Origin: Thermoplasmata archaeon
GTDB taxonomy: Archaea > Thermoplasmatota > Thermoplasmata > Lutacidiplasmatales > UBA184
Reading direction: 5' to 3'
NCBI GenBank assembly: GCA_022750455.1
Contig: JAKIVR010000002.1
Location: forward strand, 1,270 to 65,269
Length of the DNA stretch: 64,000 nt
Below the pieces are notes generated by a model. That model was given only the letters and a program-made list of their open reading frames with translations, had not been told where the DNA came from and searched no databases. Below are positions 4,984 through 56,821 of the stretch, piece after piece. The stretch's first letter is position 1, and every line of letters starts with the position of its first letter. The translations under genes and the position numbers were made by a program.

Positions 4984-6567
4984 GTGAAGCGACTCCGTAC
5001 CATCCGTCAACGGCCGAATCGCGCCACCGCGGCGCAGGTCAGCGCTGTCGCCACGATCCTCGGCCTCCTGCTGTTGTCGAGCTTTCTGGGAAATTTCTTC
5101 AACACGACCCTTCCCGCCGAGGAGGAGGAGCTGGAGTTCCAGCACGGCGTTCTGATCCAGAACCAGATGGCCGAGCTCCAGGCGACGATCTACAAGGAGG
5201 CGTCGAGCCCGCTGCCGTACAACCTCCCCACCCCGATCTCCCTCGGATCCGAGCCATACCCGCCGTTCGGTCTCTCGTCCCCCGGCAGCATCGCTCCCGC
5301 GGGCCCGGGGACCTCGGTCAATAGCACCTACACTCTCGTCTCCATCGACGGGAACTCCCCGGACTGGAACTTCGGGTCCCACTGCCTCTCGCCCGCCGGC
5401 AGCGGCACCTGTATCACCCCCGGCGTGACCAACAGCTGGAACTCGACCGCCAACGGCACCCGCTTCAACGTGATCATCGCTGCCTCCGCGTCGACGAACG
5501 GCCTCTACTACAACATCACCGGCCAGAACGACTCCCTGAACGTGACCTGGCTCGGCGCCACCGCGGGGCGCGTGGAGGTCGTGATCTACGGCTCGAACGA
5601 CACCGTCAACTTCACCATGAGCGGGCTTGACGCGAACTCCCCGATCCTTCAGTTCCTCTTCTACGGGCAGAACGACACCATCAACAGTTACATCACGACG
5701 GTCCACATCGGCGTCGGCGGCACGTCCGACCTCGTCCAGTTCGTCGGAGTTCACGAGCCGCTCTGTCCGCAGCTCAATCTCTCCGGGACCGATCGTCTCG
5801 GACACACGAACGTCACCGGACTGAACAGCAATGTGAAGTTCACCGTCTCGTGGTGGAACGCCATCGGACGCACCACCGCCCCCAACACGCTCCCGCTGGC
5901 GGGCGGAGGCAGCTCAGTGACGTTCCTCAACAACACCGGATTCATCGCGTGCGCCTTCACCAAGGCGTACCCGGAGAAGTACCTGATCCAGTACGAGTCC
6001 GGGATCCTGGTCCACCTCAACAACCGGTACGACCCGCCGACGGACATCGCCTACGATGACGGGGCCGTCATCCTCGCCCACCCCGGCCTCGGCTCGATCC
6101 TCCTTGACCAACCGAACTTGTTCGTGCGTCCGATCAATTCGCAGGCGGCCATGATCGTGAACGGGGCCGGTGGCCCGGTCTCGGTGTCCGGGTTCGACGC
6201 GAACTTCACCCTCGTCAGCCTCTTCGGGAACTACTCGCAAGAGGTCGGCGTCGGGACGGCCTCGGTGCTCACTCGGGTCATCGACTCCCACACGTACTCG
6301 GTCATCAACCTCCCGCCGAAGAACATCTACCTCGCTTCGTTCTGGCTCAACGTCACCACCCCGTACCCGAGCGCCTGGTCCTCGCTCTTCAGCACCTGGC
6401 CGGGCGCCGCGATCCCCGGGGGCTTCCACTGCACGACGACCGTCGTGATCGCGGCCCCGTACACCTGCCTCTTGCCGCCCCCGGGAGATTCGGTGACGCT
6501 GTCGGGGGAGATGCTCATCTCGGAGCTGAATCTGCAGACCGTCACGGTCGCCGTCTCCATCGCCTGA
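4984..6567 (+). CDS. cell-surface glycoprotein with N-terminal signal/TM anchor (S-layer or adhesin candidate)
   Basis: GTG start. Hydrophobic N-terminus AVATILGLLLLSSFLGNFF. More than 20 N-glycosylation sequons (NTT, NST, NGT, NIT, NVT, NFT, NDT...). Ser/Thr/Gly/Asn-rich beta-rich composition. Confidence 0.7.
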   Translation: MKRLRTIRQRPNRATAAQVSAVATILGLLLLSSFLGNFFNTTLPAEEEELEFQHGVLIQNQMAELQATIYKEASSPLPYNLPTPISLGSEPYPPFGLSSPGSIAPAGPGTSVNSTYTLVSIDGNSPDWNFGSHCLSPAGSGTCITPGVTNSWNSTANGTRFNVIIAASASTNGLYYNITGQNDSLNVTWLGATAGRVEVVIYGSNDTVNFTMSGLDANSPILQFLFYGQNDTINSYITTVHIGVGGTSDLVQFVGVHEPLCPQLNLSGTDRLGHTNVTGLNSNVKFTVSWWNAIGRTTAPNTLPLAGGGSSVTFLNNTGFIACAFTKAYPEKYLIQYESGILVHLNNRYDPPTDIAYDDGAVILAHPGLGSILLDQPNLFVRPINSQAAMIVNGAGGPVSVSGFDANFTLVSLFGNYSQEVGVGTASVLTRVIDSHTYSVINLPPKNIYLASFWLNVTTPYPSAWSSLFSTWPGAAIPGGFHCTTTVVIAAPYTCLLPPPGDSVTLSGEMLISELNLQTVTVAVSIA

Positions 6568-24153: not shown

Positions 24154-25338
24154 ATGACACCACCGCTTCGATTCTCCCTCTCCGGGGATGAATCAGCCCG
24201 CCTCCACGCCTGGTCGACCGACCCGGCGAACTCCCCGCGGAGCCGCACCCGCGCCCGCATCGTCCTCTTGGCGGCGCACGGCCACAGTGCGGCGAAGATC
24301 GCCCGCACGTTGGGGATACGCACCGAGACCGCCACCCTCTGGATCGCGCGTTTCTCGATGCATCGGATCGACGGGTTGACGAAGGAGGCCCCCCGACCCC
24401 GCGGAAGCCAGGCGGCCGACGCGACGATCCGCGAGCGCATCCTTCGGACGACGCACGAGACGCGACCGCCGGACCCGCGCGGCTGGACCACCCGCTCCCT
24501 CGCCCGGTACCTTGGCGTCAGCCACATGCGCGTCCATCGCGTCTGGGCGACCCACGGCGTCGGCGAGATCCCTCCCGCCCCACCGGTCGGAATGCCGGGG
24601 GCCGGGTACGTCCCGTTCGTCGACGTCGCCGGACTGTTCCTCGAACCGCCGCACCGGGCCGCGGTGTTCGCCGTCGGGGTGCGATGGGACTCGTCGGTCT
24701 CCGCAACCCCCGTCCTCGCGCCGTCGTTGCCCGCGGCCCGCTCCGGCGCGTTCTGGACCCGACCGAGCTCCGTCGGCCCGGAGGCGCTCCTCCGGGCCCT
24801 CGAGTCTCCGGCCGACGCCCCTCGCGGAATGCCCGGACGTTCCAGCTCAGATCTCCTGATCTTTCTCCGACGGCTCGAGGAGCAGAGCCCTCCGTCGGTC
24901 CAGCTCCACGTCGTCGTCGAGGCGTTGGGCCCGACAGGCGCCCGGGCCCTTCGGAACTGGGCGGAGCGCAAAGTGCGGTTCCACCTGACGGAGGTCGCCT
25001 CCGGCGAGACGCTCGCCGGCCAGTGCCGCACGTTCCTGCAACCGTGGCAAACGACCCGTCTCCATCGGGGGAGCTTTGCCCACGCGGTCCGAGCGCTCGA
25101 AGTGGTCGGGGGACGGCCCGGAGCCTCGGGACCAAGCTCTCGGGCATTCCTCTGGATGCCGCTCACCGAGCCGTTGCTGCCGATGGACCGGTACGCGATG
25201 ACCCCCGCCCCGACCGAGCCCGCTCTCCCCGAGCCGTGGCTCCACCCGCCCCTCCCCGGGGCGTTCCGGAGCGGCGCCGCGCCCACCGACCCGACCCGAA
25301 GGCCTCCCCACCCCACGGCCGGTCCGCGTCCGGACTAA
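24154..25338 (+). CDS. IS630-like transposase-related protein with degenerate catalytic triad (possibly inactive or domesticated)
   Basis: N-terminal paired HTH typical of IS630 (RIVLLAAHGHSAAKIARTLG...SLARYLGVSHMRVHRVW). The core aligns to DDE_3 but carries FLEPP and VVVEALGP where D residues are expected. Confidence 0.45.
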   Translation: MTPPLRFSLSGDESARLHAWSTDPANSPRSRTRARIVLLAAHGHSAAKIARTLGIRTETATLWIARFSMHRIDGLTKEAPRPRGSQAADATIRERILRTTHETRPPDPRGWTTRSLARYLGVSHMRVHRVWATHGVGEIPPAPPVGMPGAGYVPFVDVAGLFLEPPHRAAVFAVGVRWDSSVSATPVLAPSLPAARSGAFWTRPSSVGPEALLRALESPADAPRGMPGRSSSDLLIFLRRLEEQSPPSVQLHVVVEALGPTGARALRNWAERKVRFHLTEVASGETLAGQCRTFLQPWQTTRLHRGSFAHAVRALEVVGGRPGASGPSSRAFLWMPLTEPLLPMDRYAMTPAPTEPALPEPWLHPPLPGAFRSGAAPTDPTRRPPHPTAGPRPD

Positions 25339-25427
25339 GGCGCTCCCTCGTCCCGGACGGTCCCGGCCCCGTGGAGAAATACGCGTTACGGAAACGAGCA
25401 TTTTAATACCGGACCTCAATCGAAGAG

Positions 25428-25443
25428 GTGCCCGAACGGGCAC
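25428..25443. promoter_or_regulatory. inverted repeat GTGCCCG-AA-CGGGCAC between the TATA-like TTTTAATA (25401-25408) and the start of the TasA-like gene
   Basis: Read from sequence. Positioned to act as an operator around the predicted TSS. Confidence 0.3.
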
Positions 25444-25462
25444 ACTTGAGCGTGAAATCAGA

Positions 25463-25981
25463 ATGGTAGCGAAGGCATTGTGGGTCTCTATGTTGGTCTT
25501 GGGAGTCTTGGCCGTGTCGGGTCTCGGCTTCGCGGCGTTCACCGCGCAGTCGAACGTCACGATCACCGGCACCGGCGGAACTCTCTCTCTCGCGGTCACG
25601 AACTGGAGCACGGAGACCAGCCAGTCGTACGTCGGCTGCTGGGGCTGGACCTCCGGCTCGAACCTCTCGATCGAGGCGGCCCCTCTCGCACCGGGCGACT
25701 GGTGCGAGGTGTTCGCCAACATCACCAACGCCGGGAACGTCCCGGCCACGGTCACCGCGTGGACCTCCCTCGCGCCGGGCTCGTGCTTTGACTGGGTCGT
25801 GATCTCGCCCTCGGAGAGCGGCTCCTCGACGGTCGCGCCGGGCGCCTCGATCCAGTTCCAGGGCGCGCTCGGCCTCAGCTCGGAGGCCGGCAACTCCTGC
25901 CAGGGCGCGGTCGGTAACCTGGTCGTGAACTTCGACGCGAGCGCCTCGACGAGCGACGCTGGGGCGCCCGCGGGCCTCTAG
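25463..25981 (+). CDS. TasA/camelysin-like secreted protein with SipW-cognate-type signal peptide; glycosylated pilin/fibre subunit candidate
   Basis: N-terminus MVAKALWVSMLVLGVLAVSGLGFAAFTAQS resembles the SipW-cognate signal class. N-glycosylation sequons NVT, NWS, NLS, NIT. Beta-rich Ser/Thr/Gly composition. Confidence 0.55.
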   Translation: MVAKALWVSMLVLGVLAVSGLGFAAFTAQSNVTITGTGGTLSLAVTNWSTETSQSYVGCWGWTSGSNLSIEAAPLAPGDWCEVFANITNAGNVPATVTAWTSLAPGSCFDWVVISPSESGSSTVAPGASIQFQGALGLSSEAGNSCQGAVGNLVVNFDASASTSDAGAPAGL

Positions 25982-26129
25982 ACCGGAGGCGACGCCCCCC
26001 CCCACGCCAACCTTTTCCTCCTCTTTCTTCCACTCCTTCGAGGATCATGTCGGTCGTCCGATCGCTCCGGCCGGTCCCGGCGGCGGGCGGTCACGAACGC
26101 GTGTCGCGCGCCGGGACCGGTAGGCGTTC

Positions 26130-27551
26130 GTGATCGACGTTCCGGGGATCTTCGCCCTCGTCGCGGGGATCGCCGCGCTCGGCATGCTACCGTGGCTCGT
26201 CCGCGGATGGCGGTGGGTCTGGTCGGCGGGGATCATGGCGGTCCTGCTCGCGTGGCTGTATGACGGAGTCAGCCCGGACGCGGTCGGCTGGTGGTTCCCG
26301 CTCGCCTTCGGGCTGTTCGCCGCGGCGCCCCTCGGCGTGTACTATCTCTGGGTCCGATACGGGGAGCGCTCCGAACCGGCCCGGTTCGGATTCTGGATCC
26401 CGGAGGACCGGGCCGCCGGGCTGCTCGCCCTCTCGGCGGCGTTCGTCGGGATCTTCCTGGTGCTCACCCTCGAGCCCGGGTTCCTGCTCGGGTTCAGCCT
26501 TCCCCCACTCCCGGACCCGTACGACTTCGGGCTGTACCTCCTGATCCTCCCGGTCCTCGCGCTCGGCCAAGAGGCGATCTTCCGGGGCTACGTGCTCATC
26601 CGGCTCGCGGACACCGTCTCCTTCCGCGCCGGCCTGTTCGCGTCGGCGATCCTGTTCGGCCTGACACAGTTCAACCCGTTCGTGATCCAGGAGATCTCGA
26701 GGTCGCAGCTCATCGCCGTGATCTTCGGCGGATTCATCACGAGCGTCGCCCTCGGCCTCTTCCTCGGCTTTTACTGCTACAAGTCGAGCTGGAGCCTGCT
26801 CGGCACGTGGAGCTTCCGCACCGGGATCCTCTGGTTCACCTTCCTCACGCCGGTCGTCATCGCGAACCTCGCGTGGGAGTACTCGTTCATCTTCGCGCTG
26901 ATCGCCATCGTCGGCATGCTGATCGTGGCGTACGCGGGGCTGCGCGAACCGCGGTACCAGGCACGCCACTACCTCGAGGAGCCGCTCAACCCCCGTCGGG
27001 GGACGCTCGCCGCGGCCGCCCGCACCCGACAGCAGATCTACGTGAGCGCGGCGCTCGTCGCCGCGGTCCTCGTGGTGCTCGCCTTCGCGGCCCCGATCGC
27101 GGCCGAGACGGAGCGGGCGCCCGTGCGGGTCCTCGCGATCGCCTCCGGCAGCATGGTGCCGACGTTGAACCGGGGCGACCTCGTGTTCCTGACCCGGGTC
27201 ACGTCGCCGGACCAGCTCCAGGTCGGCGACATCGCGGCGTACAATGCGCCGTACCTCAGTACCGAAGGTCCGGTCGTCCATCGGATCATCGCGATCCACT
27301 ACAACGGGAGCACGCCGATCTACACGTTCAAGGGGGACCACAATCCGAGCCCCGATCCGAGGCCCGTGCAGTTTTACCAAATCGAGGGTAAGTTCGTCGG
27401 GAGCGTTCCGCTGGTGGGTTACCTCGTGCTGAGCCCGGCGCTGGCGATCGCGCTCATCCTGGTCCTCGCGCTCGTCTCCTTGTACCGTTCGACGTCCGAG
27501 CCGGGGCGTCGCCCGCGACCGCGGCTACCGCTGCGGGAGAACCCGATATGA
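26130..27551 (+). CDS. fusion protein: CPBP (CAAX) intramembrane protease domain + type I signal peptidase (SipW/archaeal Ser-His type) domain
   Basis: N-terminal ~290 aa polytopic with QEAIFRGYV and FGLTQ CPBP-like motifs. C-terminal ASGSMVPTLNRGDLVFL (catalytic Ser) ... VVHRIIAI (His) ... C-terminal TM, typical of SipW/Sec11-type peptidases. Confidence 0.7.
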   Translation: MIDVPGIFALVAGIAALGMLPWLVRGWRWVWSAGIMAVLLAWLYDGVSPDAVGWWFPLAFGLFAAAPLGVYYLWVRYGERSEPARFGFWIPEDRAAGLLALSAAFVGIFLVLTLEPGFLLGFSLPPLPDPYDFGLYLLILPVLALGQEAIFRGYVLIRLADTVSFRAGLFASAILFGLTQFNPFVIQEISRSQLIAVIFGGFITSVALGLFLGFYCYKSSWSLLGTWSFRTGILWFTFLTPVVIANLAWEYSFIFALIAIVGMLIVAYAGLREPRYQARHYLEEPLNPRRGTLAAAARTRQQIYVSAALVAAVLVVLAFAAPIAAETERAPVRVLAIASGSMVPTLNRGDLVFLTRVTSPDQLQVGDIAAYNAPYLSTEGPVVHRIIAIHYNGSTPIYTFKGDHNPSPDPRPVQFYQIEGKFVGSVPLVGYLVLSPALAIALILVLALVSLYRSTSEPGRRPRPRLPLRENPI

Positions 27552-28612
27552 GGTTGACCACCGTCGTCTTGGTGGCGCTCGTGCTCGGAGCGATCGTGGC
27601 CGGGTACGCCCTCGTCTCGGCCGAGACCGCCGCTCCGCCGGGCAGCTCCACGCACGACGTCGTCAGCTACCAGGGGTCGGCGGCGTTCAACTACGAAGCG
27701 ACGATCCGCCCGAACGCGCTGCAACCGAACGGCTCCGTGCTCGGTCCGGGCGAAGGTCCGCTGTTCGCGACCGAGATGACGAACGTGAACCTCTCCGTCT
27801 CCTACACGATGCAGGCGGCGCCGTCCGCCACCGTCGAGCTCTCCGGAGGGTTCGACCTCATCGCCAGCGGCGGTGGGGTATGGAACTACACGCTCAACGA
27901 CTCGTTCCCCCACGTCCGTCCCGTATCGGAGGAGGGCTCCGCGACGTTGAACGAGAGCACCGAGGTCAACGTCGCGAAGGTGCTGGCGTTCTTCGTCCAG
28001 GTCCAGAACCAGACGAACTACGAGCCGGTCAACGAGACGCTCCAGTTCGTGCCCGTGGTGTTCGCGACGATCGTCGGCGGGGGTCTCTCGACCGAGATCG
28101 TTCCGAAGTCGGTGTTGACGTTCAGTCTGGAGAGCGGGCAGTGGGTCCCAACCTCGAACGTCGGCGCCTCGTCCGGGGCCTTGACGACCACGAGCCCGAG
28201 CTCGGGCCCGAACAACGGCGAGGACGTAGAGATCGCGCTCGGAGCCCTGCTCCTCGTGCTCGCCGCGATTGGGGTCGTCGGCTACCTCGAATTCCGCGCC
28301 GTCCAACGCTCGCGGCGAGAGATCGATGTCGCCCGGCAGCTGAGGCAGTTCACCACCCCGTACAAGGACGCGATCGCCGACACGGCGACCCCTCCAAGGA
28401 ACGAGAACGTCGTGTCGATGTACGACTGGGAGGACCTGGTGCACGTTGCGGACATGCTGGGGAAGCCGATCCTGCAGTTCCGCTACCACCGCCCGGACGA
28501 CACCCGCCACTTCTTCTACGTCCTCGATGGCAGCGTCCAGTACGTCTACCTGGTGCCGGTGGACGGTCGTTCGGAGGAAGGCAAAGCCCCGTACGATACG
28601 CGCCCCACGTAG
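27548..28612 (+). CDS. membrane-anchored glycoprotein (signal peptide, N-glycosylated ectodomain, C-terminal TM + cytoplasmic tail)
   Basis: ATG overlaps the upstream stop (ATGA). Signal MRLTTVVLVALVLGAIVAGYALVSA. Sequons NGS, NVN, NLS, NYT, NDS, NES, NQT, NET. TM ALGALLLVLAAIGVVGYL. Confidence 0.6.
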   Translation: MRLTTVVLVALVLGAIVAGYALVSAETAAPPGSSTHDVVSYQGSAAFNYEATIRPNALQPNGSVLGPGEGPLFATEMTNVNLSVSYTMQAAPSATVELSGGFDLIASGGGVWNYTLNDSFPHVRPVSEEGSATLNESTEVNVAKVLAFFVQVQNQTNYEPVNETLQFVPVVFATIVGGGLSTEIVPKSVLTFSLESGQWVPTSNVGASSGALTTTSPSSGPNNGEDVEIALGALLLVLAAIGVVGYLEFRAVQRSRREIDVARQLRQFTTPYKDAIADTATPPRNENVVSMYDWEDLVHVADMLGKPILQFRYHRPDDTRHFFYVLDGSVQYVYLVPVDGRSEEGKAPYDTRPT

Positions 28613-50794: not shown

Positions 50795-53560
50795 CTACGC
50801 GTCCCGGGAGTCCGTCCCATCGACGTCGGGCCGCCTCTCGAGGGCCTTCTCATCGAATTCGATGCGAGGTCTCTCATCGTGCCGGGCCGTGTACTCGAGC
50901 GGCCCGCCGGGAACCAGGCGGCTTTCAATCAGCCGCTCGGTGAGGAGCGAGGCGATCCACTCCCCCAGCTCGGAGCGGGTCGGACCGTCGGCGCCTCCGC
51001 CGAGGTGGAGCGCGTCGAGGGTGATCGGACCTTCCGCTCGGATCCGGTTCAGGAGTTGCTCCCTCCCTTCCGCGTACCGCCGGAGCTCCTCATCCGAGGC
51101 GAGGGTCGACGCCGTCGTTCCGGGCGATCGGCGGCGGACGAGCCAGACGGCCACGCCGGCGACGCCCGCGATCCCGAGGCCGCCCCACGCGAGCGGGTTC
51201 AACTCGGCGATCGCGCCACCTCCCACGGCCGGGACGAGGATCGTCGGCAGGAGCTGCACGCCCCAGGAGGTTCGGACCGTCACGATCCCGGAGTCCGGTG
51301 CCGGCGCGGAGTAGTTCACCCACGCGGTGGAGTCGTTCGGCCCGGGGACGATCGGTGTATCGAGGGTCCACGTCGACCCGTCGAACGATTCGGTGACCAC
51401 GACCTCGCCGCCCGAGACTGGGTTGCCGTACGGATCGGAGATCTTCCACAACGTGTGGTTGACCCGATCGCCGGGCAACGCCACGTCGGGGTCGAACAGG
51501 TGCACGTGGCGAAGATCCGGGCCGCAGCTCAACGAGATCACGTCCCCGGGTGCGAACGCGAGGGGTGGCGAGAGACCGACCGCCTCGATCTCGTACACCC
51601 CGGCTCGGTAGGCCGTCAGCGTGAGGTTCAGGTAGCCTCCGAGCCACGCTCCGACAGGGACGTTCACCGAGTCGTTGCTCGCGGGGAGCGTCGTCCCCAG
51701 CGACGACGTGTTGATCGTCAAGCCCGATCCCCCGGGGCCGGCGACGTCGAGCGACAGGGGTGCTGCGAACGACGTCACCCGCTGGCCGCCGGGGTCGGTC
51801 GCGAACCAGCTCCAGGAGGTCGGTGTCCCCGCGACGACGGAGTCGTTCCACGGCGACGCGTCGATCGCCGCCGCCGGGCCGGCGAGCACGGTGAACGTCG
51901 TGGAGCTCGCGACGCGCGAGCCGAGGGAATCGACGACCGTGAGCGTCACCGTCTCCGGACCCGGGAGGATCGGCACGTACGACCACGAGACCGTCCCATC
52001 CGCTCGGAGAGCCCCGGTGGCGGCGGTCCCTCCGGGCGCGGAGAGGTTCCACCAGAACGACGCGGGGAGCAATCCGCCCGTGTACGGGCTCGTCAGATCG
52101 ATCGAGGATCCGGCCTCCACCACGGAGGCGGCCGGGGCGACGGCCCCGAGCGACGGGGAGCTCGCGACGACCACGGGGAGCGTCGTCGAGACGTTCACCC
52201 CGGCGCTGTCCGAGAGCGTGGCCGTGGTCGAGTACTGGCCCGGCGCGCGGTACAGCAGATCGAACGACCAGGTCGGCCCGTCCCCGGCCGAGCAGTTCGT
52301 CCCGAAGCCGGTGCCGTTCAGGCACGCCGGACCGAACGGGGGGGTGCCTGTGCCCGGGGCCAGGGTGAGGATCACGGGGATCGGATGATCCAAGTACCCG
52401 ACCGCGGGGAGCGGGGCGATCGAGAGGTACGGGGCGTCGTTGATCGACACGGTGGGGAGGGACCACGTCGTCTGGGAGTATCCATTGGTGAGCGTGACCG
52501 TCGGCTCCGCCTCGCCCGCGACCGCATACGTCGTGTTTCCGTCGCAGGTGATCGCCGCCTCACCTCCCGGCCCCTCGGTCACTTGGCAGGGCAGTGGGAT
52601 CGAGGCCTCGGACAACCCCGGGTCGACCCACGCCGTGTACGGATACCCGGCCGCGCCCGTGCCATTGGCGGTGAAGCCGATCGTCTGGCCCACGTCCCCG
52701 CGCGTGGCGGAGGGGCTGGCCGCGGTCAACTCGGTCGGGAGCGCGTCCAGCGATACGTTCGTCCAGGCGGCGACGACCGTTCCGTTGTACGTCCCCTCGT
52801 CCTGGATCGCCAGCGTGGCGGGGCCGGCCCCCGGGGCCGCCACGACCATCGCGGAGTCCGGCCGACCCGACGCGGTCACGGCCCAGCCCGGGGTCGAGAG
52901 GGTCCAGTGGACCGTGGCGTTCACCGGCGTCGCGTTCCCGTTCGCCGCGAGCCCCGTCGCGACGAACGTCGTGGACGCGTCGACGCTCACGGTCAACGGA
53001 CCGGCCGGCACGACGTTCACGCTCTGGAGCGCCGCGACGTACTCAAGCGTCGCAGTCGGCCACGAGGCGTTCCAGGTGTAATAGTACCCGGGCGGGTCGG
53101 TCTGGTTAGGTTCGATGGTCGGTTGGGCATACGGCCCGGTGAACTCCGAGCAGGTCGAACCCGAACAGCTGTTCGCCGGCACGGGGACCGTGAAGTTGAA
53201 GGCGCCGCCGGCTCCCGTATCGAACGTCGAGTTCCCGATCACGCAGGTGGCGACCGGTGGCTGGCCCATCACGCCGACGATCGAGAGGTAGTCGAAGACA
53301 TACAGGAACGACTCCCCGGCGAGCGGCGGCGTGGGAACCGCGCTCCCGACCACTCGCAGAGTACCGTTCACGTCGGAGGGGAGCGCCGTGCCGTTGCAGT
53401 TGGAGAGGTTCGTGGTGGCGAGCGGTTCGAAGATCGAGGGGACGGCCGGACGATGGTCGGCGAGGGACGCCGTGGGAACGGTCGACAGGACGAGCCCCAC
53501 GAACAGGACGACGAGGACCCAGGGCACGGCGGGTGCGCGGAGCCGGCGAAGCCAGGACAT
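50795..53560 (-). CDS. large cell-surface glycoprotein (S-layer candidate): signal peptide, ~800-aa N-glycosylated ectodomain, C-terminal TM and ~120-aa cytoplasmic tail
   Basis: Signal MSWLRRLRAPAVPWVLVVLFVGLVLS. More than 25 sequons. TM LAWGGLGIAGVAGVAVWLV then RRRSPG. Confidence 0.7.
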   Translation of the reverse strand: MSWLRRLRAPAVPWVLVVLFVGLVLSTVPTASLADHRPAVPSIFEPLATTNLSNCNGTALPSDVNGTLRVVGSAVPTPPLAGESFLYVFDYLSIVGVMGQPPVATCVIGNSTFDTGAGGAFNFTVPVPANSCSGSTCSEFTGPYAQPTIEPNQTDPPGYYYTWNASWPTATLEYVAALQSVNVVPAGPLTVSVDASTTFVATGLAANGNATPVNATVHWTLSTPGWAVTASGRPDSAMVVAAPGAGPATLAIQDEGTYNGTVVAAWTNVSLDALPTELTAASPSATRGDVGQTIGFTANGTGAAGYPYTAWVDPGLSEASIPLPCQVTEGPGGEAAITCDGNTTYAVAGEAEPTVTLTNGYSQTTWSLPTVSINDAPYLSIAPLPAVGYLDHPIPVILTLAPGTGTPPFGPACLNGTGFGTNCSAGDGPTWSFDLLYRAPGQYSTTATLSDSAGVNVSTTLPVVVASSPSLGAVAPAASVVEAGSSIDLTSPYTGGLLPASFWWNLSAPGGTAATGALRADGTVSWSYVPILPGPETVTLTVVDSLGSRVASSTTFTVLAGPAAAIDASPWNDSVVAGTPTSWSWFATDPGGQRVTSFAAPLSLDVAGPGGSGLTINTSSLGTTLPASNDSVNVPVGAWLGGYLNLTLTAYRAGVYEIEAVGLSPPLAFAPGDVISLSCGPDLRHVHLFDPDVALPGDRVNHTLWKISDPYGNPVSGGEVVVTESFDGSTWTLDTPIVPGPNDSTAWVNYSAPAPDSGIVTVRTSWGVQLLPTILVPAVGGGAIAELNPLAWGGLGIAGVAGVAVWLVRRRSPGTTASTLASDEELRRYAEGREQLLNRIRAEGPITLDALHLGGGADGPTRSELGEWIASLLTERLIESRLVPGGPLEYTARHDERPRIEFDEKALERRPDVDGTDSRDA

Positions 53561-54211: not shown

Positions 54212-56821
54212 TTATCCCGTCTGCGCGGGCCCTTCTTGGAACGCTCGACCGATCGCGGCGAGCGTCCAGACGCACGCGGAGCGGTAGTCCGCGCCCGCCG
54301 CGGCGAGCGAACGCCGCACTCTCCGGGCCCGGGTCCCGTCGGGCACCACGAAGACGACGAACGCGCCGGCCGACCGGCCCTTGGCGAACCCTCGTTCGAT
54401 CCGCTCCGGTCGGAGCGCCCCCGACACCTCGGCCTCCACGTGCACGTCCTGCCCGTGGAACGCCCGCCAGAGCCAGTGGGGTTGCCACCAGGCGATCCGA
54501 TCCGCGAGCGCCGCCGGGCTCACCCCCGCGAGCTCGTCGCGGAGGCGGAAGCGCGCGTCGGGTTGGCGGAAGGCGAACGATCCCTGCGGGAGGATCTCCA
54601 GGCGGATCCCGTGGCGGGCGAAGATCCGGAACGTGCCGAGCAGTAGCGCCCGGTGGAGCGCACTTTCGCGGACCGCCCCGGTCCGGGGATCGAGACCGAG
54701 CCAGTGGCGGCCGGGGTCGGTGAGTCGGAACCGCTCCGCGTCCACGAGCTCGATCCATCCGCGCTGGAGAAGGGCCTGGCGTTGCCCCGGGAGCTCGGCG
54801 GGGTCCCCCGGGAGAGCGGTGCCCGCCCACCGCAGGAGAGTCGAGACGGTGGCCGCTCGTCCCTGTTCCTCGAGGGCGAGAGTTCCCAGGAGGAACGACT
54901 CCGCCGTCGAGCCGTCGAACCCGTCGAGGGACTCCGGATCGTCCACGTGCGCTCGTCGGCTCGCCTCGGTCGCCGCCCGCCACGCTCCACGCTCCGCCGC
55001 CGGCGGCGCCGGCCAGTCGACGACCTGGCGCGCCGCCCCCGGCCCGTTCGGCAGGACGATCGATCGTCCGTCGGGGAGCGAGGCGATCGCGGTCGTGATC
55101 GTCTCTACGTCCTCCCCGATCCACGGCGCGATGGCCCGCGCCGCCGCCCGGGGCAACCGGAAGACGACGTGGGTCCCGACGGAGGAGCCGACGGCGCTGC
55201 GAGCCTCGGGCTGCAGCCGATCCGGATACTGCGTCGCCGCAAGCACGGAGAGTCCGAACTTCCGGCCCTCCGTGATCATCTCCGCGAGAAGTCCCGGGGC
55301 GATCCGATGGGCCTCATCGAGGAGCACGGTCACCCGCGGAGGCCGGTCGGAGGGCCACGGGCCGGCCCGGCAGGCGCCGAGGAAGACCCGCGTCGCCAGC
55401 AGCGTCACGACGTACTCCACGGCCTCGGGGCCGAGCTCCCCGATCGGGAGCCGCCAGAGCACGCTCGTGCCGCCCGCCAACAGTTGCTCGAGCGGCAGCG
55501 CCCGTCCTTCGGGGGCGACCAGGCGCCGGAGCCCCGGGTCGTTCGCCAGCGGCCCGAGGCGGGCCGAGGCCGGCCAGAGGAACTCGGGGTTCCGCCGCAC
55601 GACCGCGGGGAGGTCGTCGAGGAAGCGTGCGAGCTCGCCCGGGCCGAGGCGCATTCTCGCCGCCTCCCGGCGGCGCGCATCGGTCAACAGCTCGACGAGG
55701 TCGTTGAGGTCGCCGCCTTCCGCCTCGGTGATCCGCAGGAACGCGTCGAGCACGCGCTCGATCCGAAACCCCCAGAACGTCTCTCCGTCCCGGGTCCCGA
55801 CGCGGCGCAGCGCCGCGAGCAGCATCGACCGCTCGGCGCCGCCCCGGATCCCATCCTCCCCACCGAGGAGCTGGACGCCCGGCGCCGTTCCGTCGGTCGG
55901 ATCGATCGCGACGACCCGCGCCCGCTCGGCCGGGGAGAGCCGCGCGAGGATCGCCGGTGCGAGATCGCCGTGGACGTCCCAGCCGACGATCGCGCGCCGG
56001 TCCCGGATCGCGGTCGAGGCCCAGTGGACGAGGCACGCCGTCTTGCCGGCGCCGGAGGCGCCGACCACGAACGCATGCCGCCGCAGCGCCGGACCGAACG
56101 GGGCCGCGGCGAAACCCGCGACCGTCAGCCGGGCGACCGCGTCGGGCGGCGCGACGAACGCCCGATGGGATCGGAACCATCGCACCGCCCCCGAGCGCCA
56201 CTCCCTCCGCGCGGACCAGCGCGGCCGGTACGGGCGGAGCGAGCCGAGGGCGATCGAGGCGTGGACGAATCGCGGTCCGAGGGAGCGCGCCGTCGCCCCC
56301 AGGGCATCCGCCTCCCCGACCGGTGAGGTCGCAAGGCAGCGCACGGAGAAGTGGAGCTGACCGGTCCCCGTCGACCTCGCGTGACATTGGGCGGCGACCC
56401 AGGCCCCGGAGGCCGGTGGTCCGGTCGCCGGGACGAAGTCGATCGTCGGTGGAACTCCGGGCACGGGACGGGCCGCGCGGCCGCGTGCCTCCTCGCGGAG
56501 ATCTTCGCCCGGCGGCGGCTCGAGGACGGAGGCGAGGAGCCCGCCGCTCGCCCCTCCCGAACGCTCCGGTGCCGCCGGCGTACCCTCCACCTCCACGAGT
56601 CCCCGATGCCGATCGACGACCGACCGCGCGGCGGCCCCGGCCGCACCGGGAGCGATCAACGTCCAGTCGCCGGACCGGGGGACGAGCTGCTCCTCGATCA
56701 GCACGCCTTCCTCTCGAGGGAGATGGGCCAGGATCCGGAGGATCTCGGCCACGGCGTCGAAGACGAGGACCGGCGGGGCGTCGGGTCGGGGCTGGAAGGC
56801 GGCGGGTGACCGTTCACCCAT
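54212..56821 (-). CDS. HerA/FtsK/TraG-type P-loop ATPase with C-terminal winged-helix + nuclease-like extension (start uncertain)
   Basis: Walker A FVVGASGAGKT. WDVHGDL. Walker B VTVLLDEAHR. EGRKFGLSVLAATQ arginine-finger/sensor block. No TM. C-terminal ~260 aa with a wHTH-like segment and an acidic HVEAEVS block. Confidence 0.7.
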   Translation of the reverse strand: MGERSPAAFQPRPDAPPVLVFDAVAEILRILAHLPREEGVLIEEQLVPRSGDWTLIAPGAAGAAARSVVDRHRGLVEVEGTPAAPERSGGASGGLLASVLEPPPGEDLREEARGRAARPVPGVPPTIDFVPATGPPASGAWVAAQCHARSTGTGQLHFSVRCLATSPVGEADALGATARSLGPRFVHASIALGSLRPYRPRWSARREWRSGAVRWFRSHRAFVAPPDAVARLTVAGFAAAPFGPALRRHAFVVGASGAGKTACLVHWASTAIRDRRAIVGWDVHGDLAPAILARLSPAERARVVAIDPTDGTAPGVQLLGGEDGIRGGAERSMLLAALRRVGTRDGETFWGFRIERVLDAFLRITEAEGGDLNDLVELLTDARRREAARMRLGPGELARFLDDLPAVVRRNPEFLWPASARLGPLANDPGLRRLVAPEGRALPLEQLLAGGTSVLWRLPIGELGPEAVEYVVTLLATRVFLGACRAGPWPSDRPPRVTVLLDEAHRIAPGLLAEMITEGRKFGLSVLAATQYPDRLQPEARSAVGSSVGTHVVFRLPRAAARAIAPWIGEDVETITTAIASLPDGRSIVLPNGPGAARQVVDWPAPPAAERGAWRAATEASRRAHVDDPESLDGFDGSTAESFLLGTLALEEQGRAATVSTLLRWAGTALPGDPAELPGQRQALLQRGWIELVDAERFRLTDPGRHWLGLDPRTGAVRESALHRALLLGTFRIFARHGIRLEILPQGSFAFRQPDARFRLRDELAGVSPAALADRIAWWQPHWLWRAFHGQDVHVEAEVSGALRPERIERGFAKGRSAGAFVVFVVPDGTRARRVRRSLAAAGADYRSACVWTLAAIGRAFQEGPAQTG

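Follow-up and report, generated by a model that had tools for sequence, protein, structure and literature searches.

Does a gene for a secreted protein, placed beside a signal peptidase that carries an additional membrane domain, specify an extracellular fibre, and is the additional domain itself a protease? The locus that raises this question lies within a 64,000-nt stretch of a Thermoplasmata archaeon contig (JAKIVR010000002.1), the whole of which is referred to here as the window, and it was originally predicted to be a candidate archaeal fibre locus containing a novel fusion. Three genes had been placed in the 25401-28612 region, and all three ORFs were found at the coordinates given, co-directional on the forward strand: 25463-25981, 26130-27551 and 27548-28612. 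Together with an upstream helix-turn-helix (HTH) gene, they make up a four-gene cluster of an HTH regulator, a subunit, a CPBP-like::signal peptidase I (SPase) fusion and a DUF5305 protein. We put the probability at roughly 0.7 that this cluster produces an N-glycosylated fibre outside the cell, built from a TasA-superfamily protein whose nearest relative is AbpX. The locus type has been known since early 2026, and the present example is a new version in which the peptidase is fused to an inactivated CAAX-protease-like domain.

Organization of the gene cluster

Gene 1 (25463..25981, + strand) has an ATG start and encodes a 172-aa precursor of the putative AbpX-like fibre subunit. Gene 2 (26130-27551, + strand) encodes the 473-aa fusion from a GTG start, which is supported by its homologues, as these too begin with MI[DN]. 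Gene 3 (27548..28612, + strand) encodes a 354-aa DUF5305 protein and overlaps gene 2 in an ATGA. The motifs quoted in the original prediction were all recovered, VSGLGFAAFTAQS in gene 1 and QEAIFRGYV, FGLTQ, SGSMVPT and VVHRII in gene 2. The N-glycosylation sequons claimed for gene 1 were also present, four of them in its mature part; sequons across the cluster are confined to predicted extracellular segments, with a further seven in the gene 3 ectodomain (all at aa 61-162) and one in the peptidase domain. The order of subunit(s), fusion and DUF5305 is conserved in about 30 Thermoplasmata loci. Sister loci carry two to four paralogous subunits in tandem, an arrangement that is typical for major/minor pilin sets; the window has a single subunit gene and encodes no tip or anchor gene.

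The putative fibre subunit

Residues 1-24 of gene 1 (25463-25534, + strand) form a predicted Sec signal peptide with cleavage between GFA and AFT, followed by a putative donor strand (about aa 25-40) and a beta-sandwich core (aa 43-161). Pfam and NCBIfam scans of gene 1 yielded no significant match (NCBIfam at E<=1), so that the SipW-cognate signal (TIGR04088) proposed for its N terminus comes down to a visual resemblance at the junction. The proposed relationship to Peptidase_M73 was likewise not significant in gene 1, and across 29 homologues this model gave weak matches in six (E>=0.09). A profile of the gene 1 family (29 homologues) significantly matched AbpX in the PDB (9sj2_C, E 6.8e-5; 9rhp_A, E 2.5e-4); this search gave nothing significant beyond these two entries, and no Tafi structure was matched. 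In hhalign comparisons, the family was related to AbpX-type subunits, represented by those adjoining polytopic SPases in Desulfurococcales, other Thermoproteota and Moorellaceae (probability 94.9%, E 4e-8), and to clade-II paralogues (97.4%, E 1e-11). As judged by these profiles, the nearest characterised relative of gene 1 is AbpX, not TasA or AbpA, and it is in this form that the TasA-superfamily reading of the locus holds.

A TasA jelly-roll with a donor strand had been put forward as a structural test of gene 1. In the AF2 model of gene 1 (pLDDT 82) the all-beta core is confident as a beta-sandwich and most of aa 19-42 is disordered, the disordered segment lying directly after the signal peptide; fold searches returned only generic Ig-like or PapD-like sandwiches and singled out no TasA-type fold. 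Residues G20, G22, A24, A25, F26 and T27, the PGDWC motif and four Cys are invariant among the 29 homologues, as are the junction as a whole and a PGD...N.G motif. If cleavage occurs after Ala24, mature position 2 is aromatic in all 29 (Phe26), and none of the 29 has an acidic mature position 4, which is occupied by Ala, Ser or Val; canonical AbpX-type neighbours read MWSE or AWTE at the mature N terminus. The C-terminal QWN motif of AbpX/TasA is absent from gene 1. The mature protein contains 9 Asp+Glu in 148 residues (6%); with Lys, Arg and His all absent, its pI is nevertheless about 4. Since the family lacks the acidic mature position 4 that AbpX uses for calcium and has four invariant Cys, predicted to form two disulfides, assembly of the fibre may not be calcium-triggered.

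The CPBP-like::signal peptidase fusion

The N-terminal part of gene 2 (aa 1-285; 26130..26984, + strand) is a polytopic membrane domain of the CPBP/Rce1 fold with the motifs QEAIFR, FGLTQ and FRTGIL. Its assignment to CPBP is corroborated by Pfam, as aa 134-225 match the Rce1-like family PF02517 with 25.4 bits against a gathering threshold of 22.4; the domain has the polytopic CPBP membrane fold, and its best structural match is SpdC. Among 66 homologues, the first Glu of motif 1 (EExxxR) is replaced by Gln in 59 and kept in four, the His of motif 2 (FxxxH) is present in none, and the His of motif 3 (HxxxN/D) is Arg in 62, with a hydrophobic residue at the +4 position. No conserved His was found anywhere in the membrane domain of these homologues. 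Because its catalytic motifs are degenerate, this member of the CPBP fold is a predicted pseudo-protease and not a competent protease, and the earlier guess of a non-catalytic membrane module can be extended to the whole family. Glu148 and Arg152 (63/66 each), Arg230 (62/66) and several other, invariant membrane-embedded residues are conserved, which indicates that selection acts on the former active-site region.

The signal peptidase I module (27030..27488, + strand) comprises a TM anchor (about aa 301-325), a catalytic region (aa 326-429) and a C-terminal TM segment (about aa 430-453), after which a basic tail takes up the rest of the gene (to 27551). Residues 308-449 match TIGR02228, the archaeal signal peptidase I (S26B), with 84.4 bits (cut-off 51.85). 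The predicted catalytic residues are Ser341, His384 and Asp403/Asp409; the Ser and His are found in 66/66 homologues and both Asp in 65/66, in keeping with the Ser/His peptidase of archaeal/Sec11/SipW type that had been proposed. The SipW equivalog NF046067 was matched with 57.3 bits, under its cut-off of 190, and the peptidase is thus best assigned to the SipW type by predicted mechanism class, not as a SipW orthologue.

The fusion is genuine, as had been claimed, and does not stem from misassembly: both domains are covered by 67 proteins (about 420-500 aa, 36-52% identity) that come from numerous independent contigs and sources. A split form is also found. In locus L089, a stand-alone CPBP-like gene that has its own stop codon lies between the end of a DUF5305 gene and a separate SPase gene, which begins 3 nt further on, and the short contigs L086 and L090 fit the same arrangement. 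A further candidate for a stand-alone CPBP-like protein (P0104) turned out to be a piece of a fusion cut off at a contig end.

The DUF5305 protein

Gene 3 matches PF17231 (DUF5305) with 45.7 bits, above the gathering threshold of 29. It had been described as a glycoprotein with a C-terminal TM segment; the sequons and TM segments are present, but the protein belongs to the DUF5305 accessory proteins and has two TM segments by hydropathy (in aa 1-29 and 223-253), followed by a tail of roughly 100 aa that is presumably cytoplasmic. This layout of TM, ectodomain, TM and cytoplasmic domain fits the published description of DUF5305. The gene is located directly 3' of the peptidase gene in all but one complete Thermoplasmata locus examined; most clade-I loci have a 4-nt overlap of the two at the peptidase stop codon, and in L055 and L064 SPase and DUF5305 form a single ORF. 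DUF5305/TafG has been assigned as an SPase partner (bioRxiv 10.64898/2026.01.04.697558; PMC12337348), and gene 3 is proposed to be an accessory subunit of the signal peptidase.

Proposed mechanism

The subunit would be exported via Sec, as suggested by its invariant G-x-G-F-A|A-F-T junction, and would be cleaved after Ala24 by the dedicated peptidase, whose Ser/His active-site residues are in place. This cleavage site is deduced from the -3/-1 rule and from the similar cleavage junction of TasA (small-aromatic-Ala followed by Ala-Phe). Cleavage would release an N-terminal strand starting with Ala-Phe, and by homology to AbpX the freed strand would enter the open beta-sandwich of a neighbouring subunit (donor-strand complementation), leading to chaperone-free polymerisation. 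The peptidase would operate as a three-module membrane complex, with its TM anchor held by the fused, catalytically dead CPBP-fold domain and with DUF5305 translationally coupled; this is suggested by the CPBP-like::SPase fusions found here, the SPase::DUF5305 fusions found elsewhere and the three adjacent, separate genes of another lineage. By analogy with degenerate CPBP proteins of S. aureus that act similarly (SpbR with SpsB, SpdC with SagB), the CPBP-like module would most likely hold the active site in position, as a scaffold or gate, and control the choice or timing of cleavage at the cognate signal peptide.

Alternative explanations

Gene 1 might instead encode a beta-sandwich glycoprotein that stays monomeric once secreted or displayed at the surface, for example an adhesin or a component of the envelope, and needs a dedicated peptidase complex without forming a fibre. 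Such a protein would account for the generic Ig-like or PapD-like folds, for the missing calcium-binding acid and QWN motif of AbpX/TasA, and for the single subunit with no tip or anchor in the window. It is nevertheless unlikely in view of the significant profile similarity to AbpX and AbpX-type subunits, the tandem paralogues of the sister loci and the match of the accessory genes to those of AbpX and Tafi loci; in addition, the junction and the post-cleavage strand are invariant, and the strand is disordered in the monomer model, as expected of a donor strand. For gene 2, the CPBP-like domain could be an active intramembrane protease with a modified site built on Glu148, Arg152 and Arg230, given that these and other membrane-embedded residues are so well kept and that the first Glu is retained in a few homologues. 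Two of the three defining motifs are lost family-wide, however (motif 2 without its His, motif 3 without His or Asn/Asp), no His in the membrane domain is conserved, and the best structural match, SpdC, is reported to be non-catalytic. The S. aureus protein SpbR shows the same pattern (HELYMR, FIYLD, QIVAI) and has no catalytic requirement (PMC12260438). An active protease is therefore very unlikely, and the same applies to the second cut that it might make, e.g., to remove the cleaved signal peptide from the membrane or to trim the subunit.

The resemblance of the upstream gene to the N terminus of an IS630 transposase, and the existence of split CPBP-like and SPase genes in another lineage, could also suggest that the fusion is an artefact of two separate ORFs or that the cluster is cargo of an IS630 element. 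This explanation is effectively refuted: 66 full-length fused homologues from independent assemblies read through from one domain to the other with neither a stop nor a frameshift, no DDE domain is detectable in the HTH gene, which remains beside the subunit gene in divergent clade-I loci, unlike an active IS, and the cluster is flanked by ordinary housekeeping genes (malic enzyme, MarR, Zn-dehydrogenase).

Comparison with known systems

Signal peptidases with ten TM helices accompany AbpX, together with DUF5305 and transcription factors, in Thermoproteota, Bacillota and Chloroflexota, the AbpX lineages listed in the January 2026 preprint on Pyrodictium abyssi AbpX by Sleutel et al., in which CPBP and CAAX are never mentioned (bioRxiv 10.64898/2026.01.04.697558). 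The present locus shares with these a subunit that is homologous by profile, with an acidic composition and an aromatic mature position 2, and the combination of subunit(s), DUF5305, a transcription factor and an SPase I of about ten TM helices. It differs in its Thermoplasmata lineage and in a subunit that has neither the acidic mature position 4 nor the C-terminal QWN, with 6% Asp/Glu versus about 15% and four invariant Cys versus two. The N-domain is recognisably CPBP here, whereas the polytopic SPases of Thermoproteota/Bacillota have no Pfam Rce1 match; by hhalign, their N-domains reach 20.6% against canonical CPBPs, and an intermediate match to the Thermoplasmata N-domain (79.5%) is their sole link to CPBP. 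In the "ten-TM" AbpX peptidases, the eight additional TM helices are probably of CPBP identity, which we do not claim as established.

No account of this fusion emerged from literature searches that paired CPBP or CAAX with signal peptidase and with TasA, pili or "fused". The original claim of an undescribed architecture stands in that the AbpX preprint does not name CPBP/CAAX, but ten-TM SPases with DUF5305 had already been reported there. Nor is the combination of a degenerate CPBP protein with signal peptidase I new, as such a complex is experimentally established in S. aureus, where the degenerate CAAX-like protein SpbR binds SpsB in a 1:1 complex via the peptidase TM helix and inhibits SpsB cleavage (PMC12260438). 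Unlike SpbR-SpsB (PMC12260438) and SpdC-SagB (PDB 6u0o), the modules here are covalently fused, or encoded by adjacent genes in the split form; also unlike SpbR-SpsB, the peptidase is of the archaeal/ER-type Ser-His class instead of bacterial Ser-Lys, and is tied to a fibre operon.

The Bacillus TasA-SipW-TapA system likewise has a secreted TasA-superfamily subunit beside the gene for a dedicated Sec11/SipW-type peptidase, and the PGD...N.G motif is common to TasA and gene 1. SipW has no CPBP-like domain, however, and the present locus has no TapA and no significant Peptidase_M73 match. Haloarchaeal Tafi loci encode the regulator TafB, the peptidase TafD, the DUF5305 protein TafG and the pilins TafE/A; the pilins mostly have Tat signals, and no CPBP domain or polytopic peptidase is mentioned for TafD (PMC12337348). 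The functional set is equal to that found here (regulator, signal peptidase, DUF5305, donor-strand pilins), but the subunits of the present locus match AbpX and no Tafi structure in PDB profile searches.

TasA/AbpX/Tafi-type fibres increasingly appear to be the chief protein scaffold in archaeal and Gram-positive biofilms, and the locus adds to these a soil/sediment Thermoplasmata branch with subunits that appear to lack a calcium switch. The fusion and fission evidence suggests that the peptidase acts together with the pseudo-CPBP module and DUF5305, and the sequence bridge to the "ten-TM" AbpX peptidases, through the probable identity of their extra helices, connects them to SpbR-SpsB regulation. 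A broader and quite tentative possibility is that a dead CPBP/CAAX-fold protein on the TM anchor of signal peptidase I is an ancient module of bacteria and archaea, separate in S. aureus (SpbR-SpsB), split between neighbouring genes in a single archaeal lineage, and joined into one protein in Thermoplasmata as well as, probably, in every "ten-TM" AbpX-type peptidase. With DUF5305, it would constitute a prokaryotic multi-subunit signal peptidase complex that gates one class of signal peptide and couples secretion to chaperone-free donor-strand assembly. The value of the locus lies in this testable hypothesis of substrate gating by pseudo-proteases and not in a new class of system.

The upstream HTH gene and non-coding elements

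The upstream gene, HTH394 (24154..25338, + strand), has an IS630-like HTH_23/HTH_32 N terminus (Pfam E 1e-11 and 8e-9, respectively) and a degenerate, transposase-like C terminus in which Pfam detected no DDE domain; its match to the NCBIfam IS630 model is 56 bits, under the cut-off of 100. Homologues with identities of only 28-35% adjoin the subunit gene in other clade-I Thermoplasmata loci (L001/L002/L009, which are three entries for one contig, L006, L007, L008, L010, L012, L013 and L033); in L011 the homologue is downstream on the opposite strand. HTH394 was rejected as a mobile-element marker because of this synteny at low identity, and it is probably the transcription regulator of the locus. 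The original prediction did not include this conserved gene.

A candidate archaeal promoter of the subunit gene (25385..25408, + strand) can be read from the sequence as GTTAC at 25385-25389 and a TATA-like TTTTAATA box at 25401-25408. Most of 11 related loci likewise have GTTAC ... TTAATA ahead of the subunit gene. About 20 nt past the TATA-like box is the GC-rich inverted repeat GTGCCCGAACGGGCAC (25428..25443, + strand), a candidate for either a 5'-leader hairpin or an operator; of the 11 loci compared, 9 have a GCCC-loop-GGGC hairpin at the same relative location, with complementary differences in the flanking pairs. After the subunit stop codon, a pyrimidine/T-rich tract (26010..26040, + strand), identified by inspection of the sequence alone, may terminate transcription in part and thereby set the ratio of subunit to peptidase expression.

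Gene content of the locus

The three open reading frames of the original prediction were found at exactly the coordinates proposed, all on the forward strand: gene 1 (25463–25981, 172 aa), gene 2 (26130–27551, 473 aa) and gene 3 (27548–28612, 354 aa), the last joined to gene 2 by an ATGA overlap. Gene 2 begins with GTG, a start supported by its homologues, which also begin with MI[DN]. The CPBP and signal peptidase domains predicted for its product both exceed curated HMM cut-offs (Pfam Rce1-like PF02517, 25.4 bits against 22.4, aa 134–225; NCBIfam archaeal signal peptidase I TIGR02228, 84.4 bits against 51.85, aa 308–449), and gene 3 matches Pfam DUF5305 (45.7 bits against 29). Gene 2 is identical to a database protein annotated as "MAG: signal peptidase I [Thermoplasmata archaeon]", and gene 1 to a "hypothetical protein" that the same contig encodes. 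With a probability of about 0.7, we read the locus as one for AbpX-like fibres, served by its own dedicated multi-module peptidase. The components are single-copy within the window, which has a GC content of 63–74%; malic enzyme, MarR and Zn-dehydrogenase housekeeping genes flank the cluster, and no tip or anchor gene was found within the window. Elsewhere in the window, a 527-aa ORF (4984–6567, + strand) has an N terminus containing RATAAQVSAVATILGLLLL and resembling an archaeal class III (type IV pilin-like) signal peptide, and a 921-aa ORF (50795–53560, − strand) has a hydrophobic, signal-peptide-like N terminus; neither of these, nor an 869-aa ORF (54212–56821, − strand), has a Pfam match.

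The putative fibre subunit

Gene 1 has 29 homologues, all unnamed or "hypothetical" and from Thermoplasmata wherever the source is named. A SipW-cognate signal had been proposed for gene 1, and the Pfam and NCBIfam scan, which included that model, returned no match. A profile of the 29 homologues has exactly two significant PDB matches, both AbpX of Pyrodictium abyssi (9sj2_C, E 6.8e-5; 9rhp_A, E 2.5e-4). In profile-profile comparisons the family also matched small secreted proteins encoded beside polytopic signal peptidases in Desulfurococcales, other Thermoproteota and Moorellaceae (94.9%, E 4e-8), and Thermoplasmata paralogues from the clade-II loci described below (97.4%, E 1e-11). The junction G20-L-G22-F-A24-A25-F26-T27 is an invariant feature of the 29 homologues, as are a PGDWC...N.G motif and four cysteines, and the −3/−1 rule places the predicted cleavage after Ala24 (G-F-A|A-F-T). 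Given this cleavage, mature gene 1 lacks Lys, Arg and His, has a pI of about 4 and carries four sequons. The family differs from canonical AbpX, with its mature N termini of x-W-x-[D/E] and C termini of FAQWNEV, in having no QWN motif and four conserved cysteines rather than two. All 29 homologues have Ala, Ser or Val at mature position 4, and Asp and Glu together make up only 6% of the mature protein. Because the position-4 acid of AbpX has been tied to calcium-mediated strand complementation (bioRxiv 10.64898/2026.01.04.697558), its absence suggests that fibre assembly here is not calcium-triggered.

A signal peptidase fused to a degenerate CPBP domain

The fusion of a CPBP-like domain to a signal peptidase is genuine and conserved. 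Among 5.8 billion proteins searched, 67 homologues of about 420–500 aa cover both domains (36–52% identity) and come from many independent assemblies; those with a named source are all Thermoplasmata MAGs, and when one genome per species was scanned, both-domain matches likewise appeared in Thermoplasmata MAGs only. The predicted peptidase catalytic residues hold on alignment of the 66 full-length homologues, Ser341 and His384 being present in 66/66 and Asp403 and Asp409 in 65/66. The membrane domain (the N-domain, aa 1–285) was suspected of having degenerate motifs, and the loss proved to be family-wide. The first Glu of the EExxxR motif is Gln in 59/66, with the second Glu and the Arg each retained in 63/66; none of the 66 has the His of FxxxH; and in HxxxN/D Arg replaces the His in 62/66, followed at +4 by a hydrophobic residue. 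No conserved His occurs in the N-domain membrane region of these 66 proteins, and the correspondence of motifs to residues was confirmed by profile-profile alignment to canonical CPBPs (99.7% probability, E 9e-26). By sequence, then, the CPBP catalytic positions are lost across the family, and the extra membrane domain is a dead CPBP fold.

An N-domain-only profile searched against 1.84 billion representatives gave 543 matches, ordered as fusions, then stand-alone degenerate proteins, then canonical CPBPs with all three motifs; all matches tested for PF02517 were positive. Three stand-alone proteins (P0111, P0112 and P0117, about 270–290 aa) are degenerate in the same manner as the fusion (TESIFRGY, no motif-2 His, FRAG) and end in an EP.Y..R.Y motif where the fusion's linker begins. 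In one fetched locus (L089:242–1368) the CPBP-like protein has a gene to itself, complete with stop codon; the 3' end of a DUF5305 gene lies upstream of it, and 3 nt downstream begins a separate signal peptidase gene encoding a TM anchor and AISGQSMNPT. The C terminus of a DUF5305 protein is also encoded upstream of the CPBP-like gene in L086, and just downstream in both L086 and L090 there begins a short ORF whose N terminus is basic and which in L090 runs into a hydrophobic stretch; both contigs end early and are compatible with the L089 arrangement. This split-form lineage is AT-richer, with contigs of 1.2–1.4 kb. One ORF in each of two Thermoproteota MAGs (L055:6887–8440 and L064:6887–8473) matches both the signal peptidase and DUF5305 HMMs, an independent line of support for DUF5305 as a partner of the peptidase; such an ORF has been noted for Anaerolinea (bioRxiv 10.64898/2026.01.04.697558). 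Since the CPBP-like, peptidase and DUF5305 modules are fused in two different combinations and encoded by neighbouring genes elsewhere, there is good evidence that they act together.

Synteny of the Thermoplasmata loci

Annotation of the window and 85 fetched loci with four protein HMMs built here revealed two syntenic types in Thermoplasmata. Clade I comprises the window and nine other distinct loci (L001/L002/L009, a single contig fetched three times, L005, L006, L007, L008, L010, L011, L012, L013 and the truncated L033), in the order HTH protein, one or two subunits, fusion and DUF5305; L005 has no HTH match, and the HTH gene of L011 is downstream on the opposite strand. The 4-nt overlap of fusion stop and DUF5305 start recurs in most clade-I loci. 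In clade II (L003, L004, L014–L032 and L037) the fusion and DUF5305 precede one to four subunit paralogues (two to four in most complete loci), and an HTH_45 gene lies upstream in both loci checked. Clade-II loci (L003:10055–10612, L004:10260–10745 and others) also encode a divergent Cys-rich subunit paralogue with 5–9 Cys per protein, whose N terminus in many loci includes a lipobox-like VAFA-C-GGGGG; this paralogue is a candidate for a membrane-anchoring or tip subunit.

Relation to known systems and proposed mechanism

The observation behind the original prediction was confirmed and its interpretation was largely right, but its claim of novelty has been overtaken by work of 2025–2026. No description of a CPBP::signal-peptidase fusion came up in literature searches, but the claim of "not a described architecture" holds only in part, as the ten-TM AbpX peptidase with DUF5305 and the SpbR-SpsB pair have been published. 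AbpX, a TasA superfamily clade in Thermoproteota, Bacillota and Chloroflexota, has solved fibrils that assemble by calcium-dependent, chaperone-free donor-strand complementation, and its loci encode a signal peptidase I "structurally distinct, possessing ten transmembrane helices", DUF5305 (a proposed peptidase accessory), minor or tip subunits and transcription factors (bioRxiv 10.64898/2026.01.04.697558, January 2026). That preprint makes no mention of CPBP, CAAX or Thermoplasmata. The Tafi system has the same roles, with TafD as peptidase, TafG as DUF5305 protein and TafB as regulator (PMC12337348). In S. aureus, the CAAX-protease-like SpbR, with degenerate motifs (HELYMR, FIYLD, QIVAI), contacts the TM helix and extracellular domain of signal peptidase SpsB in a stable 1:1 complex and modulates cleavage; SpdC is a further degenerate, non-catalytic homologue (PMC12260438, 2025 PNAS). 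Over 182 columns, the N-domains of the Thermoproteota and Bacillota ten-TM peptidases can be aligned with that of the Thermoplasmata proteins (hhalign 79.5%, E 1.5e-5), the E..R and FR motifs falling in register; Pfam Rce1 does not match them, nor do canonical CPBPs directly (20.6%). At the level of such profiles, these peptidases are probably also CPBP-derived. New here are a Thermoplasmata branch whose subunits are atypical, the explicit recognition of a dead CPBP fold in the extra membrane domain, the existence of a split-gene form, a connection to regulation of the SpbR type, and a conserved domesticated-transposase-like regulator and leader.

We propose that the subunit would be exported via Sec and cut after Ala24 by the fused peptidase, working in complex with its pseudo-CPBP module and DUF5305. 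The cut would release an Ala-Phe-Thr... donor strand, and subunits would polymerise without a chaperone into a fibre that is glycosylated and stabilised by disulfides. Judged by the analogous pairs SpbR-SpsB and SpdC-SagB, the pseudo-protease most likely acts as a clamp on the TM anchor of the peptidase, and its intramembrane surface could position or gate the cognate signal peptide, governing which precursors are cut and when. This specific gating role is considerably less secure than the reading of the locus as a whole.

Probable upstream regulator and leader

The gene upstream of the cluster (24154–25338, + strand) encodes an IS630-like HTH N terminus, so an insertion sequence was considered. 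No DDE domain is detectable by Pfam, the C terminus retaining mere remnants of a transposase layout (FVDxxG, LLIFLR, HPRFxLHxVPxG..W), and the gene adjoins the subunit gene in other clade-I loci at only 28–35% identity. Because its position is conserved at such low identity and DDE is absent, the insertion-sequence reading was rejected, and the gene is probably a regulator of the cluster that looks like a domesticated transposase. The subunit gene leader (25385–25443, + strand) is conserved across most of 11 loci. It begins with GTTAC, has a TATA-like TTAATA box roughly 12 nt further on and, after another 20 nt or so, a GC hairpin or palindrome, which in the window reads GTGCCCGAACGGGCAC; base pairs on either side of the hairpin core vary between loci in complementary fashion. 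Most relatives carry AACCGGGAAA and a AAGGAGTG Shine-Dalgarno-like box after the hairpin, both absent from the window. Directly 3' of the stop codon of the subunit gene lies a pyrimidine/T-rich tract (26010–26040, + strand), and gene 2 has no TATA-like box ahead of it; together these suggest partial termination, leaving more subunit than peptidase transcript.
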